DNA from: a virus | Taxonomy: Duplodnaviria; Caudoviricetes | IMG/VR virus record: IMGVR_UViG_3300032038_000059 | Span: 9,297 to 73,296 of that record | Strand: one strand, 5' to 3' | DNA length: 64,000 bases | Shown: positions 4,286 to 48,824 of the stretch, in pieces | Layout: the number at the start of each line of letters is the position of its first letter | Numbering within the stretch: position 1 is the stretch's first letter | Program-made: the position numbers and the translations under genes | The notes under the pieces: model-generated | The model's input: the letters and a program-made list of their open reading frames with translations, nothing else | What the model was told of the DNA's origin: nothing | The model's database searches: none

Positions 4286-5002
4286 TTATAGATCTATACT
4301 CTCACCCCTGTGGGCGATGTTAACATTTACATTGTCACCGCAGACTTCTTTAAGTTCACTCAGGATTTTTTTCTCGTCTGCATACTTGTCAGAAAGATGA
4401 CAAGCGATGACATTTTTACATTTGTCAGAAATCGACTTTTCCAAGAAGTTTTTGACAACTTCCAAACTACTGTGACCGCGCAACCTGTGTTCCCTAGCTT
4501 CGTCATTCAGATCGATGTCTTCTGAGTGATTTACGGCTATCAGGAAATGATTTATTTTCCATGTTTTGACGGTAACTGGAATGTATTCGAAGTCGGTAAC
4601 ATAAAGTAATCTCTCGCCATTATCAAACTCGATGATGTACCCGGAATTCGGAGTATCTTCATGTGGCACTGGAATCGGGATGACTTTATAGTGACCGATG
4701 ATTCGAGTTATCTTGTTTGATGACAGACTCCGCACATATTCTCCAGTTATTATTTTGAGGTTTTTTGCAGTTCTATCTTCTGCATATACCGGGATGCCGT
4801 TTTTATTGAAATGGCGATAATACTGTGCGTGATCGCCATGTTCATGAGTTATCAGGCAAGCGTCTATGGCACTCACCCGAAACCCACAAGCAATTTGTAC
4901 ATCTTTCCATTTCATCCCGGCATCAAGTGCGAGATAATGACCGTCATTTTCGATTACATAGCAGTTACCGTTGCTAGAACTCCCTAGAACATGAATTTTC
5001 AT
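4286..5002 (-). CDS. MBL-fold metallo-hydrolase (YycJ-like); true start at 5002
   Basis: MKIHVLGSSSNGNCY, LITHEHGDHA (HxHxDH), PHED, RGHSS, ACHLS. Confidence 0.9.
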   Translation of the reverse strand: MKIHVLGSSSNGNCYVIENDGHYLALDAGMKWKDVQIACGFRVSAIDACLITHEHGDHAQYYRHFNKNGIPVYAEDRTAKNLKIITGEYVRSLSSNKITRIIGHYKVIPIPVPHEDTPNSGYIIEFDNGERLLYVTDFEYIPVTVKTWKINHFLIAVNHSEDIDLNDEAREHRLRGHSSLEVVKNFLEKSISDKCKNVIACHLSDKYADEKKILSELKEVCGDNVNVNIAHRGESIDL

Positions 5003-5834
5003 TTTTATTTTCCTTCCTTGCAGACCAGTAGAAGCCACCTGCTTTATAACGAAAATTGCTATATGCCGCCCTTGCAATGTTTCCTTTGTTGATTGATGTA
5101 ATTTTATGTGCTTCCAAAAATCCATTAAACTCATTCACTATATTCATGTTGGTATCGTATTGCGTGACCTTTATTGTTTTTGATTTTTCTTTTGCATATG
5201 AATCATTACTAGAAGCATACTTGCTAATCAATTCCCTTTGAAGGCAACCACAGCTTTTTGATCTTCCAGAAGTTAAAGACCAAGACTTTACCTTCTTTTC
5301 ATTTCCACAGTCACACCTACAATTCCACACTGCACATCTTTCATATCCGGCAAAAGATAATACAGTCCATCTTCCAAAACGTCTCCCGGTTAAGTCAGTT
5401 GTGTTATATCCGCTTGCCACTACTGGCTCATCTATTGCTCTGTTTTTCAATAGACGTTTTTGCAATGTTTTTTCATTTATTTCCAATAGTTCCGATAATT
5501 GAGCGAGAGTATATTTCTTTCCCTTATATTCAATTATTCTGTTGTTCCTCTTGTTTGACTGTTGTTGCTTGTTTGTAATCCACCTGCAATTAGATGGGCA
5601 GTAGCAGTTATTTACATCTATTCTGTCTAAAGTTAAGTTATCATTGTAACCGTTGTCTAAAGCCCAGTCTCTAAAAGTTATGTAAGAGTTCTTCCACTCA
5701 TCACATACAACTATGCCCCTACCACCGTAATTACCATATTTTCTTCCTTTCTCGTAATAGCACCTAGCTTTCATATTTAGCCAAGATTGGTATAATCTTG
5801 TATTGCTTTCTCCGTGCCATTCTCTTTTCTTCAT
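4974..5834 (-). CDS. Free-standing HNH homing-endonuclease-like protein with CDCG and NUMOD1-like domains
   Basis: RLYQSWLNMKARC...YGGRGIVVCDEW...TLDRIDVN..YCPSNCRW; DLTGRRFGRWTV...WNCRCDCG...SKSCGC; C-terminal VTQYD...KAGGFYW. Confidence 0.8.
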   Translation of the reverse strand: MKKREWHGESNTRLYQSWLNMKARCYYEKGRKYGNYGGRGIVVCDEWKNSYITFRDWALDNGYNDNLTLDRIDVNNCYCPSNCRWITNKQQQSNKRNNRIIEYKGKKYTLAQLSELLEINEKTLQKRLLKNRAIDEPVVASGYNTTDLTGRRFGRWTVLSFAGYERCAVWNCRCDCGNEKKVKSWSLTSGRSKSCGCLQRELISKYASSNDSYAKEKSKTIKVTQYDTNMNIVNEFNGFLEAHKITSINKGNIARAAYSNFRYKAGGFYWSARKENKNENSCSREF

Positions 5835-5854: not shown

Positions 5855-6775
5855 TCACGATATTTCCTCTGCATCTGCTTCGATGACAAGTTCTTCGGCA
5901 TTCGCCTTTTCTGCAATTTCAGTTTCTGCTGTTTCCGCAGGATCTTCAGGAAGATTATCTACGTACTTAACTTCCCCGGATTCATTCAGAACACCCATGT
6001 CAGATGTAAATGCACGTTGCAGATCAATGCTCATAACGCCCCATTTGGAAATTAACTGGCGAAGCATTGTTTTCTCAGCCATTCCGTCAAAATCTTTGTA
6101 CCAGAAGGATGAATAAAGCCATTCGTCTTTCGCAGGATATTTCCCGTCCAGATAATCCTGATACGAAACTTTCGGATATTTACCTCCCTTCGCATTAAGA
6201 CTGAATGCACTGCTGTATCGATCAGCATGAGCAAGCATCTTTTCTTTGCTCCAGTAGATTTCTTTCTTGAATCCGTTGATAAGTTCGAAAGCTGCGTAAT
6301 ACCCAACAACCGGGAGAGATTCCCTTAATTCCATATCCAAAATTGGTTCAAAAACATATTCTTCCGTAATTGGGTTGAATGACTTCAACTCTCCTTTTTT
6401 GACAGCAGATGCTACGATCTTTCTGTACTGACCGCTACGAATCGCAAGCTGCCGATAACCTTTACTCCCAAGCTGAAACTGGGCTTCAGTTACACCATTT
6501 TTATTTTTGTACGGAACGAGAAAAAATTGTCCCAATTGCGGTGAAGGAGATAACTTCAATGACTCTCCAAGCAACGCTGCGGAGAAAATGGAACTGTTTG
6601 TACACTCTGCAAGCGACTTATTTGCCTGTACAGCAGACACAATTGATGCAATAAAAGATTGCGTATTTTTCTCTCCAACCACACCTGCGATATTCTGTCT
6701 GACCGCAGGATTTGCACAAAACGTAGCAAACCCCACTTTCTGGGGTTGTGTATTAGTTACTGATGTCGATGCCAT
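5855..6775 (-). CDS. recT: RecT-family single-strand annealing recombinase
   Basis: LGESLKLSPSPQLGQFFLVPY, AQFQLGSKGYRQLAIRSGQY, MAEKTMLRQL. Confidence 0.95.
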   Translation of the reverse strand: MASTSVTNTQPQKVGFATFCANPAVRQNIAGVVGEKNTQSFIASIVSAVQANKSLAECTNSSIFSAALLGESLKLSPSPQLGQFFLVPYKNKNGVTEAQFQLGSKGYRQLAIRSGQYRKIVASAVKKGELKSFNPITEEYVFEPILDMELRESLPVVGYYAAFELINGFKKEIYWSKEKMLAHADRYSSAFSLNAKGGKYPKVSYQDYLDGKYPAKDEWLYSSFWYKDFDGMAEKTMLRQLISKWGVMSIDLQRAFTSDMGVLNESGEVKYVDNLPEDPAETAETEIAEKANAEELVIEADAEEIS

Positions 6776-6798
6776 ATAATCTCCTTTCTTAAATGTGT

Positions 6799-7233
6799 AT
6801 CATGCACCTAGAAGATGATTTGAATTATGCTGTTCTGTAGTGTTCTTTTGTGATAAAGGCTATGCTAGACAGTTCATTCAAACCATCATTTAGATGCACG
6901 ATGTTATTGTCCTGTCATTTCTTGCGGTTTCATGTTATGATAGTTATTATGTTTTCCTATTATGTAATGGATGCTTCATGCACCCGGAAAACAACTCGTA
7001 TTGTAATATGCTATTTTGTCGTGATTTGACCTGTGGTAAATTAAAGTGTCAGATCGTGTCGTAAACAACACAAGTTGTCATCTAGATGCATGAAAGCCCG
7101 TGTGCTTAAGAATGACTATAAAAGCCATGTCTTGCGATATATTGTTCTGTCCTGTCGTGTTCCGCGCTGTTGTGTCGTTTAGTATGCTATTGTTTGTTCT
7201 TATGACTCTTACAGCCACACCTCAACACACGGG
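6799..7233 (-). ncRNA. Pentamer-repeat guide-like array, downstream part (4 tracts: 6816-6875, 6903-6972, 6997-7071, 7128-7192)
   Basis: 5-nt periodicity T(G/A)TNN on + strand (NN-AYA on the gene strand), 12-15 units per tract, flanked by inverted repeats such as CCCGTGTG/CACACGGG. Confidence 0.85.
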
Positions 7234-7244
7234 CGAAATATTAT

Positions 7245-7877
7245 TTATGCTTCAACATTTGATACATGGAATCTTCCGTAACCAGATGTTCTTCCAGAAC
7301 CAATTCCACTACCGAAACCTGCGAGGTTAATCACATTTACAATCTGCTCAATTCCGTAAACATTCTCCGTATACTTAATAGTGAACGTTGCGCTCCACCC
7401 GGAAAAACGATTAAGGTGAACCAGAACAGGTGCTCCACGCTTCGGAGACATCAGCTTCTCGTCAATAAAGTGATCCGTAAACTTAATCGGGATAAGCCCA
7501 CCAGTTGCAACGATATTCAGTGCAGAATCCATTTTTGTGGAGTAAGTATCAATTCCGTTTCTGACAACTGCTGCGAGAATAGCTTTCTTCAGCCCGAATG
7601 CGGTGATGCATGGAGCATTATTCTGTAAAGCATTGATAAGTGCTTCTTCCGTAAATTCTTTCGGATAGCCATCTCTCCAGTGCATAGCCGTAATAATGCA
7701 TTCCCATTCATTCGGCTTCTCTGTTGACTTCGCCTTGTCTTTGCGCTGATCTGTAAGAGCACGAATTGTCGGTTCGTTCATTTTATTCAGAACCAGATCG
7801 CCATCGCCCTCAATTGTAATTATTGCAGTATTAACCTTAATCTCCTTTAATTCGATTGCCTGTTCCTTCTTTGCCAT
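7245..7877 (-). CDS. Small Cas7/RAMP-like protein (VIPR-like effector candidate)
   Basis: N-terminal ITIEGDGDLVLN strand, F.GWSATFTIKY strand, C-terminal glycine-rich loop AGFGSGIGSGRTSGYGRFHV typical of RAMP folds; sits between pentamer arrays. Confidence 0.8.
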   Translation of the reverse strand: MAKKEQAIELKEIKVNTAIITIEGDGDLVLNKMNEPTIRALTDQRKDKAKSTEKPNEWECIITAMHWRDGYPKEFTEEALINALQNNAPCITAFGLKKAILAAVVRNGIDTYSTKMDSALNIVATGGLIPIKFTDHFIDEKLMSPKRGAPVLVHLNRFSGWSATFTIKYTENVYGIEQIVNVINLAGFGSGIGSGRTSGYGRFHVSNVEA

Positions 7878-7942
7878 AATTTTTCTCCTTTTGTTTTTAA
7901 TTAATTAATTGATATTGTGTTGTGTTGTTCGCGAATAAACAC

Positions 7943-8718
7943 AATTACAGACACTTCTGAAATCCTATGTAGTAAGCTGTCCTATATTATGCTTTATTGA
8001 ATTAAGCTGACCTTTCCTTTTGATTTCCTATCCTGATATGTCCTACTACGGGAGAAATGCCCGTAATTCTATCTATTCGCTTTATACGCTTAATTAACGG
8101 AGTAAGGTATGCTGTAGTATGCTTATTTATGCTGTTGCGTCATGATCTAAACTGTCATAACATACGGATTACTCCGTTAACTAAATGCATATATCATCCG
8201 CTCAACAAGCAACACTGTCTTCGGCTATGCTGAGTTATAGTGCGTTGAATTGACCTGTATTTTCCTACGCTTGGCAATGTTGCCAGTAGAACGGACGATA
8301 ATTTATTTTGTTCTTAATTGAAATCTAGGATTTTATCATTTAGTGTTTTGATTTGATATAGAGCAAATATGCGCTCAACTAGCGATACGAACTTTTGCAA
8401 TGTCCTATACTGAATTTGTCTGCGCTAAAGTATTCTTCGCTGTTGTATGACTATCATGAAATATCGTTAGCTATTTCGGCTCATATCGCCGGGTGAACGC
8501 ATATTGTTTTATACTGTTTTATATTGTTAAAACGTATTCCATAGAAAGCTGTTCTTTCCTGTAATATTGTTGAGCAATTGGCTCGGAAGATGATGCAATG
8601 TTATGTTTTGTGATATGCAGTATTATCATGCTGTTTGTTGTTGCGTCATTCTCTTTGGGATTCTATCTTGTTCTACATGGTGCAAAATCTATTACACCAT
8701 CATCAGAACCAACCGCTC
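7943..8718 (-). ncRNA. Pentamer-repeat guide-like array, upstream part (7 tracts: 7968-8048, 8103-8167, 8216-8275, 8299-8368, 8386-8461, 8500-8569, 8599-8678)
   Basis: Strict 5-nt phase, e.g. tgtct tcggc tatgc tgagt tatag tgcgt tgaat tgacc tgtat tttcc tacgc ttggc; stems such as TTAACGGAGTAA/TTACTCCGTTAA; most stem mismatches become G-U pairs on the minus strand. Confidence 0.88.
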
Positions 8719-8726
8719 AGATACAT

Positions 8727-9221
8727 TTATGAAACTCTTAAAAACTCATCAATAGCTTCAATCACAGAATCAAGTTCCGTTAATCGCTGATATCTATTTT
8801 TGATACCTTCAAGTTCAATCTTTGCCCGATCCAGAAGCTTTTCGTATTCATCTTTATTCTCATAAAAGAACTTCACAGGTTTGTATGTACCTGTTCTAGA
8901 ACTGTCTGCTTCAACTAAGCGAAAAACAGTTTTCTCTTCTTCTTTAGTTTCAGGGTCTTCCCGAATAAGGACGAAATTCTTTACAAGACGTTGAGCCTGA
9001 ATCACACGATACTTTTCAGAAGCTACTTTGTTGTCCCATTCAAAGTAGTTATGCATCGCAGACTTCTTGTTTCTGGCGAGATCTACGATATCTGAAAGCG
9101 TTCTACTTTCACCGTCTCCGTAGATTTCATCGTAAGTCTTCTGCGGATCAATCCCTTTCATAATTCCCGGAAGTTTCCACCCGGCTTTCTGTGAGAAACT
9201 CCACACCGTATTTCCTTCCAT
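8727..9221 (-). CDS. Conserved phage protein next to the RAMP/array locus (candidate accessory factor)
   Basis: MHNYFEWDNKVASEKYRVIQAQRLV motif; immediately upstream of the array. Confidence 0.7.
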   Translation of the reverse strand: MEGNTVWSFSQKAGWKLPGIMKGIDPQKTYDEIYGDGESRTLSDIVDLARNKKSAMHNYFEWDNKVASEKYRVIQAQRLVKNFVLIREDPETKEEEKTVFRLVEADSSRTGTYKPVKFFYENKDEYEKLLDRAKIELEGIKNRYQRLTELDSVIEAIDEFLRVS

Positions 9222-47866: not shown

Positions 47867-47938
47867 CAGCCCTAGTCAGGATCGAACTGACGCATCTGGC
47901 AGTCAAAGTGCCATACCTTACCACTTGGTTATAGGGCA
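47867..47938 (-). tRNA. tRNA-Gln(TTG)
   Basis: Full cloverleaf: GCCCTA/TAGGGC acceptor, TGGCA-CTTTGAC-TGCCA anticodon arm, GTCAG-TTCGATC-CTGAC T arm. Confidence 0.88.
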
Positions 47939-48277: not shown

Positions 48278-48389
48278 TGGAAGCGGAAGGATTCGAACCT
48301 TCGTTTTCTGATGATGGGTCAGACTGTTGCCATTGACATACTCTAACAAGCACATCACTCTTGTGCCATTTGTCTACACTTACACTCCC
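48278..48389 (-). ncRNA. tRNA-like RNA (CAT loop) with a ~38-nt insertion between the D and anticodon arms
   Basis: GGGAGTG/CGCTTCC acceptor, TCTGA-CCCATCA-TCAGA arm, GAAGG-TTCGAAT-CCTTC T arm. Confidence 0.55.
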
Positions 48390-48737
48390 ATTACTTTGAC
48401 TTTAACCTATTCTCTGGAACTACTCTTGCTTATGAGTATATTCGACCCCAATCACAAGAACTGTGATGCCCACTATCCCATGTCTTCCGGCATCTATAGT
48501 AGCGTTCCACATATCCATCGTCTTATGGACTTTGTGGCAAGCTGTCTCTTGTGTAATGTATGCATCCGCCACACATTTGCATTGTCAAAAATTTAAGATT
48601 AACTGGCGGCGGTCTTGGCCTTCGACCACACTTTAATGCTCATTAACAAACCAGTCTCATGTATGTCGATCCATTCACAAGGCATTCGTTGTACACCAAA
48701 CGCCGCCATACACGTTTACAAGCTACTGCTTGTAAGC

Positions 48738-48821
48738 AATCCCGTCAGGAGTCGAACCTGAACCTCTCCAAACCACGGAGTGAACTACTAGTCTAATCCG
48801 GTTTCCATTATTCTACGGGAT
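48738..48821 (-). ncRNA. Degenerate type II tRNA-like RNA
   Basis: ATCCCGT/ACGGGAT acceptor, long variable stem CTCC/GGAG, TCAGG-TTCGACT-CCTGA T arm; non-canonical anticodon loop. Confidence 0.5.
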
Positions 48822-48824
48822 TAA

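Follow-up and report, generated by a model that had tools for sequence, protein, structure and literature searches.

The locus described here belongs to an uncultured phage known from a 73-kb IMG/VR virus record, of which a 64-kb stretch (hereafter the window) was analysed. Within the early/recombination module of this phage lies vipr, a minus-strand gene flanked on both sides by ORF-free arrays of five-base units, with about eleven tracts in all. The layout is minimal, consisting of vipr, one small gene and ORF-free gaps of 849 nt and 469 nt, without a CRISPR array, and it is the same in the relatives L185, L187, L256 and L257. The main features are as follows.

5855-6775, minus strand: recT, the phage's own RecT gene, beyond the downstream array
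6776..7244, minus strand: downstream vrRNA array, four pentamer tracts between vipr and recT
7245..7877, minus strand: vipr, encoding a 210-aa minimal RAMP (Cas7-like) protein, a Vipr homologue
7878..8726, minus strand: upstream vrRNA array, an 849-nt ORF-free gap with six or seven pentamer tracts
8727..9221, minus strand: candidate vap (vipr-accessory) gene, 164 aa, at the far end of the array

The module around vipr encodes an SbcC-like ATPase, RecT, an HNH endonuclease and a hydrolase of the metallo-beta-lactamase fold, together with an ERCC4 nuclease, a DnaD-like replisome organiser and an anti-repressor. Two of the ORFs, at 4286-5134 and 4974-5834 on the minus strand, overlap by about 160 nt, with the HNH gene (NUMOD1-like at its C-terminus) reaching into the start of the hydrolase gene. 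No HNH gene follows RecT in L187, L256 and L257, and the HNH gene therefore looks like an inserted homing-type element.

VIPR systems were first described in bioRxiv preprints that appeared from April to October 2026, and the principle of the guides discussed below is therefore not new. In a VIPR system, the minimal RAMP protein Vipr is accompanied by an accessory gene and by vrRNAs of 9-16 GGY/NN units; the NN pairs read double-stranded DNA with one base, usually the wobble base, skipped between pairs, and the complex represses transcription without a PAM and on either strand (10.64898/2026.04.26.720920, 10.64898/2026.04.26.720927). The constant triplet is GGY, with 'a related consensus' also allowed in the VIPR papers, and the vrRNAs published in these preprints are expressed as RNAs of ~100 nt that are bound by Vipr.

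By profile comparison and structure prediction, the 210-aa product of vipr is a Vipr homologue with a predicted Cas7-like fold. A profile of its family (50 members) matched PDB entry 36pp_D, 'SUSP1 Vipr protein', with an E value of 6.1e-14 over positions 98-211; used as a single sequence, the protein reached only E 1.2 against SUSP1 Vipr, their identity being too low. The AlphaFold model (pLDDT 96.3) retrieved Csm3, Cmr4 and type VII Cas7 in Foldseek searches (E 3e-6 to 1e-4, probability 1.0). Across the 50 sequences of the family, the C-terminal glycines G187, G191 and G201 are invariant and G193 is nearly so, and these residues align with GVGDWR...GRF of SUSP1 Vipr, indicating that the glycine-rich loop of the RAMP kind is present. 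The 164-aa gene is a candidate vap on account of its position: it borders the upstream array at the end away from vipr in each of the seven relatives examined (33-94% identity), as would be expected for an accessory gene. Its product had no match in Pfam, gave a poor model (pLDDT 64) with nothing below E 1 in Foldseek, and its profile retrieved nothing beyond chance coiled-coil matches among PDB sequences. In relatives whose Vipr is 60-98% identical, ORF-free arrays likewise adjoin the gene, upstream in 9/9 loci read and downstream too wherever that side was read. In a search for the host among 401 genomes of the family to which a Blautia genome belongs, a single one carried a Vipr relative, with 30% identity.

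The five-base period of the arrays is apparent from the letters themselves: autocorrelation across the 849-nt gap (7878-8726) rises to 0.33 at lag 5 and 0.37 at lag 10, against a baseline of ~0.27. In 124 units from nine tracts, positions 1 and 2 hold just 0.02-0.04 bits, whereas A occupies position 3 in 67% and position 5 in 85% of units, and a pyrimidine (C or T) stands at position 4 in 85%. The GGY/NN consensus is thus absent and the units read NN-AYA, with the five-base period and the division into 3 constant and 2 free bases kept. The ten tracts that could be called contain 10-16 units each, compared with 9-16 in VIPR. Most tracts of the upstream array are closed by stems of 20-28 bp, and it is these stems that reveal the strand of the RNA. 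A repeat search identified three long stems, whose energies are -35.3, -25.1 and -30.3 kcal/mol on the minus strand and -14.0, -17.3 and -22.0 kcal/mol on the plus strand, where they are weaker because many of the pairs are G-U. Pairing between the tract flanks is likewise stronger on the minus strand for 9 of the 10 tracts, the sums being -214.5 and -155.5 kcal/mol. Since both stems and flanks pair better as minus-strand RNA, the RNA has the sense of vipr and reads NN-AYA. An RNA from the plus strand, with UGU/NN units that would be nearer to GGY, is disfavoured by the same duplex energies.

No shared 3' tail was seen in the flanks of the tracts; instead, arms on both sides pair across them. 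Rfam gave nothing at gathering scores and only sub-threshold matches, several of them to C/D-box snoRNA families, with E values up to 5, and a blastn search of the ORF-free gap against phage records returned no match. Two other accounts of the arrays were dropped. One, a replication origin or bent DNA with 10-bp phasing, does not agree with stems that are strand-asymmetric, and hence formed by RNA, nor with the gene matches reported below. The other, a TRAP-like or CsrA-sponge repeat RNA with unconstrained spacers, was suggested by the abundance of AGGA and NAG motifs in tracts nearby and was given up because the free dinucleotides match genes exactly. The tract nearest to the start of vipr (7958-8048, minus strand) is AGGA-rich and shifts its register midway, leaving its decoding uncertain; part of it may serve as the leader or ribosome-binding region of vipr.

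The tract at the centre of this work lies in the upstream array, between two hairpin modules.

8299..8358, minus strand: predicted vrRNA guide region, 12 units NN-AYA
8359..8368, minus strand: two degenerate leading units, AT-TTG and CT-CTA, which misfit the targets and overlap the 3' arm of the preceding hairpin
8366..8505, minus strand: hairpin module directly 5' of the guide tract, with arms 8505-8481 and 8390-8366 that close another guide tract

When the reverse complement of 8299-8368 is cut in fives, the dinucleotides read AT CT TA AA AA CT TG AA CT TT AT GA AA AA, exactly as in the original prediction made from the letters alone, and the triplet after each dinucleotide mostly ends in A. 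The lag-5 autocorrelation of the tract is 0.48, against the baseline of ~0.27. All 14 dinucleotides had been taken as the guide, and natural targets fit 11-13 of the 14; the misfit concerns the first two units (8368-8359), whereas the 12 units from 8358 to 8299 agree with the targets. The final AA unit fits the K/N that follows the 11-codon motif in many targets, and we therefore take the guide to be 12 units long, with the string TA AA AA CT TG AA CT TT AT GA AA AA, which decodes to Y-K/N-K/N-L-W-K/N-L-L-I-D/E-K/N-K/N. As noted from the outset, the tract has no obvious stem of its own; a shared tail was not recognised either. For the adjoining hairpin at 8366..8505, folding yields -30.3 kcal/mol as minus-strand and -22.0 as plus-strand RNA. 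The constant triplets of the guide tract are more degenerate than those of other tracts, and its existence as a separate RNA, of which 8358..8299 would be the guide part, is a prediction from sequence.

Searching with the gapped pattern TA.AA.AA.CT.TG.AA.CT.TT.AT.GA.AA yielded more than 120 exact matches in a collection with one genome per species and exact matches in 61 viral contigs of IMG/VR. Of the 181 matches listed, 179 lie in frame within the motif M-x-x-S-Y-[KN]-K-L-W-K-L-L-I-D-K, such that the skipped base is the wobble position and the site covers codons 5-16 of HTH_26 genes. Four target proteins that were scanned are 67-73 aa long and belong to HTH_26 (PF13443) with 64-74 bits against a cut-off of 22 (E 1e-17 to 1e-20); the tyrosine of the motif is residue 5 in each. 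The two central claims of the original prediction, that the tract is a guide reading codon positions 1-2 and that the decoded family is HTH_26, hold up well, and the nucleotide-level gapped matches on which it had staked itself are plentiful. With all 12 units and up to 2 mismatches, 301 genomes of the family of the Blautia genome contain 31 sites, distributed over 25 genomes. The pattern read backwards had 0 matches in IMG/VR and 0 sites in the same 301 genomes. The phage itself lacks a target for this guide, again as foreseen for its own HTH_26 gene: nothing in the 73-kb record comes within 3 mismatches, and 17/24 is the highest score reached in the 64-kb window.

If this agreement were coincidental, the free dinucleotides would be unconstrained spacers of a protein-binding repeat RNA, as with TRAP triplets, and YKKLWKLLIDK would have arisen by accident from a tract that is rich in A/T, since K, N, I, L, F and Y are the residues that A/T-rich dinucleotides spell; moreover, 2 of the 6 gapped patterns that we tried found no match (the L186 version of this guide and tract 7128-7207, see below). 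Such an accident is exceedingly improbable. It would have to explain why hundreds of genes agree at 24/24 fixed bases when the 64-kb window offers 17/24 at best and the backwards pattern nothing; by simple arithmetic, the 14 dinucleotides of the tract can be ordered in about 6e7 ways, of which just 6 include the 12-unit run; and it would have to repeat itself in two more guides and in the L185 variant, each of which also matches a single conserved motif with the wobble base skipped, all beside a gene whose product is a Vipr homologue. Given the empty backwards controls and the best window score, the exact match to HTH_26 genes is not due to chance, which can be set aside.

The two further guides that could be decoded lie in different arrays and differ in the target strand that they match.

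8216..8280, minus strand: SNF2 guide, inside a hairpin; its NN string corresponds to SNF2 helicase motif V, AAG[IM]GITLTAA
6908..6967, minus strand: RecT guide, between hairpins in the downstream array; corresponds to the antisense strand of RecT-like genes

The SNF2 guide, enclosed by the hairpin 8195-8300 (-32.8 kcal/mol, minus strand), has 42 exact matches in IMG/VR, all in frame, with the wobble base skipped and in coding-strand sense. The helicases matched may belong either to phage replication or to defence systems, such as those of the DrmD-like genes that follow HTH_26. For the RecT guide there are 75 exact IMG/VR matches in RecT-like genes of about 310 aa, at the motif PQLGQYYMVPY, again with the wobble base skipped. 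The region 6903-6972 had initially been decoded as a zinc ribbon, a reading that we abandon: the matched sequences hold stops in that frame, and the real gene, on the other strand, is RecT-like. Taken together, the HTH_26 and SNF2 guides have coding-strand sense and the RecT guide is antisense, so that both strands are targeted. The phage's own recT encodes FFL where the targets have YYM and matches the RecT guide at 20/24 positions (83%); four bases in a single motif thus separate self from non-self. In VIPR, absence of self-targeting is defined as an NN match below 80%, a level under which the HTH_26 guide stays (17/24) and which the RecT guide exceeds on the phage's own recT, with 83%. For the central 11 units of the tract at 7128-7207, no exact match was found.

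Comparison with close relatives shows how such guides change. Three loci with about 98% identical Vipr (L185, L186 and L256) carry the HTH_26 guide tract, and its constant triplets are nearly unchanged among them. In L185 (810-864), the leucine units have changed from CT,TT to AT,CT, and 10 nt are deleted at about 8355-8364, which removes parts of the leading units and of the TA unit that follows. This version matches 23 viral contigs exactly, all of them encoding YNKLWK[MI]LIDKN and belonging to the same HTH_26 family. In L186 (141-200), the leucine units are TT,CT and GA is replaced by AA; this 12-unit version has no exact match in IMG/VR. In L256 (3022-3070), a deletion of about 16 nt has cut the tract to 9 units. 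With the L186 version unmatched and that of L256 shortened, not every guide variant is kept on target. Over all tracts of these three loci, NN positions differ more often than constant positions (13.2% versus 7.3%, Fisher p 8e-5). The natural targets in the 301 genomes deviate mostly at leucine codons, where CTN and TTR alternate. For few residues other than leucine can a synonymous change affect codon position 1. To judge from these sequences, the variants of the leucine units look like guide and target chasing each other through the leucine codon families.

The same comparison bears on whether the tract is a guide in its own right. It could instead link two vrRNAs that are enclosed by hairpins, or be a guide in decay that has ceased to be loaded, which would suit its lack of a stem, its triplets, more degenerate than elsewhere, and its length, which varies among near-identical relatives (the 10-nt deletion in L185, the last units lost in L256). 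We consider this improbable. The tract in the window retains an exact 12-unit match to a real gene family, the L185 version has kept a second exact match, to a natural target variant, and another tract that lies between hairpins (6908-6967) has 75 exact targets. In our assessment, the phage very probably encodes, within its early/recombination module, a VIPR system in which the tract at 8358..8299 serves as the guide part of one vrRNA.

What the guide would act on becomes clearer from the surroundings of the target genes. Among the matches listed, an ORF on the same strand follows within 400 nt downstream in 147 of the 161 sites with enough sequence, and the median gap between the HTH_26 gene and the next ORF is 17 nt (135 distinct downstream ORFs). 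At the species level, the families matched most often by the 83 downstream neighbours among these matches are mad2 (16), type I methyltransferases (12), DrmD-like SNF2 proteins (10), HamA (9), type II methyltransferases (9), ABC-3C CTD11 (5) and BrxA (3), as well as several restriction endonucleases; the systems behind HTH_26 are restriction-modification, DISARM-like, Hachiman, MADS, BREX and ABC-3C. On the upstream side, another same-strand ORF ends 50 nt or less before the HTH_26 gene in 32 of 152 sites among the matches listed, and therefore this gene is not always the first of its unit; about half of the sites have no same-strand ORF ending within 150 nt upstream. Judged from gene order, the HTH_26 gene is a common leader of defence operons. 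The cassette occurs, among the matches listed, in many Clostridia and in genomes labelled Treponema, Actinomyces, Kiritimatiellae and others, and a leader with the identical 11-codon motif is found in genomes labelled Atopobium, Lentisphaerae, Alphaproteobacteria and Bacteroidales too. That the same motif recurs across these taxa suggests that the defence cassettes have moved widely by horizontal transfer.

Restriction-modification genes can be preceded immediately by genes for controller (C) proteins and other small HTH leaders, which share their orientation and leave a very short gap. The HTH_26 leader resembles them in its small size, its orientation and the short gap before the defence genes. 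However, C-protein leaders precede restriction-modification genes, whereas the HTH_26 family heads many unrelated defence systems, and its regulatory role is putative.

The mechanism described in the VIPR preprints offers an analogy for how the guide would work. Vipr protomers would polymerise along the RNA, burying the constant triplets and exposing the NN pairs, and the Vipr-RNA complex would bind double-stranded DNA and block transcription without cutting. Binding close to a gene's 5' end, the route to silencing put forward in the original prediction (which did not name VIPR), is the published way in which VIPR acts (10.64898/2026.04.26.720920). The guide has coding-strand sense, and its partner would therefore be the template strand, 13-47 nt into the HTH_26 gene. 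If the published mechanism applies, the bound complex would silence the regulator and, through polarity, also the defence genes that follow, and by reading codon positions 1-2 only, one guide would cover many synonymous variants of a widely exchanged cassette. The A-Y-A triplet differs from G-G-Y, and binding of such an RNA by this Vipr is therefore assumed from homology.

By the same analogy, the phage may silence HTH_26-led defence operons. The original prediction had the guide silence a competitor's regulator, a phrase that is too narrow, since a defence gene lies directly downstream at most sites. We tentatively propose, as something possible rather than probable, that a single hard-wired guide serves as a broad anti-defence weapon, acting by transcriptional roadblock on the HTH_26 leader of many unrelated operons, with escape and pursuit running mainly through the leucine codon families. 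What speaks against an anti-defence effect is that transcriptional silencing would be slow on defence proteins already made, which repression would not remove. The guide may instead, in line with the original prediction, serve conflict between mobile elements, silencing the regulator of rival prophages or integrative elements that carry defence cassettes, with host immunity not being the object. This reading, too, we hold only tentatively. The 61 IMG/VR contigs with the exact HTH_26 site are in keeping with it, as is the match of the other two decoded guides to phage-type genes, SNF2 and RecT, and the natural VIPR targets known so far are satellites, prophage regulators and other VIPRs (10.64898/2026.04.26.720920). 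On the other hand, more than 120 species-level bacterial genomes carry the site, and the downstream gene mostly belongs to restriction-modification or other defence systems and is not a lysis-lysogeny partner. There is no sharp line between the two readings, as defence cassettes are frequently carried by mobile elements.

Among known systems, the closest is type II VIPR, represented by Escherichia phage SUSP1 and a Pseudomonas fulva prophage (PDB 36pp). As there, the locus described here is phage-borne and consists of a lone minimal RAMP gene, a small accessory gene and long ORF-free flanks with 10-16 five-base units; the code skips one base, at the wobble position, targets lie on either strand and the HTH_26 guide has no self-target. 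There are also differences. The triplet is G-G-Y in type II VIPR and A-Y-A on the inferred RNA strand here; type II vrRNAs share a 3' tail with a pseudoknot, whereas most tracts here are closed by the 20-28-bp stems; the Vipr of this phage is too distant from that of SUSP1 for a single-sequence match (E 1.2); and in the place of the accessory gene stands one for a 164-aa protein without detectable relation to anything solved. In contrast to the targets of type II VIPR, the target here is the leader HTH gene of putative defence operons, and the VIPR texts that were searched contain no mention of restriction-modification or anti-defence targets.

Non-canonical VIPR arrays with WGT/NN, TGH/NN, GAC/NN and CAC/NN units have been presented as logos of intergenic DNA in the available part of a further preprint (10.64898/2026.10.21.760802). 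Like the arrays described here, they have five-base units with a non-GGY triplet and lie beside a Vipr-like fold, and the reverse complement of the present unit, TGT/NN, agrees with the WGT/NN as well as the TGH/NN logo. The available part of that preprint gives neither strand nor targets for them, whereas here the G-U-rich stems assign the NN-ACA strand. More distantly, the backbone proteins of Class 1 CRISPR systems (Cas7/Csm3/Cmr4 on crRNA) share the predicted fold of this Vipr in Foldseek comparison, and Vipr is likewise expected to polymerise on a guide RNA and to interrupt pairing at regular intervals. However, a CRISPR array, further cas genes and an adaptation module are all missing from the locus; of every 6 bases 5 pair in Class 1 CRISPR, as opposed to 2 of every 5 here; and acquired spacers are replaced by hard-wired guide genes.

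The present locus adds to the published picture an A-Y-A scaffold with its strand assigned from the G-U pairs of stems, guides enclosed by hairpins, and a natural target that appears to be the shared leader gene of many defence operons, possibly a new class of target. Should the silencing of operons be real, VIPR would be a counter-defence tool of phages as well as a weapon between viruses, and the wobble-skipping code would explain how one guide can cover a cassette spread over several phyla. The variation at leucine codons would provide a concrete, testable picture of escape and pursuit under such a code.

Apart from the VIPR locus, the window contains tRNA genes on the minus strand at 47867-47938, 48278-48347 and 48736-48822, with Gln (ttg) and Thr (agt) called by ARAGORN and one weak match to Rfam (32.9 bits).
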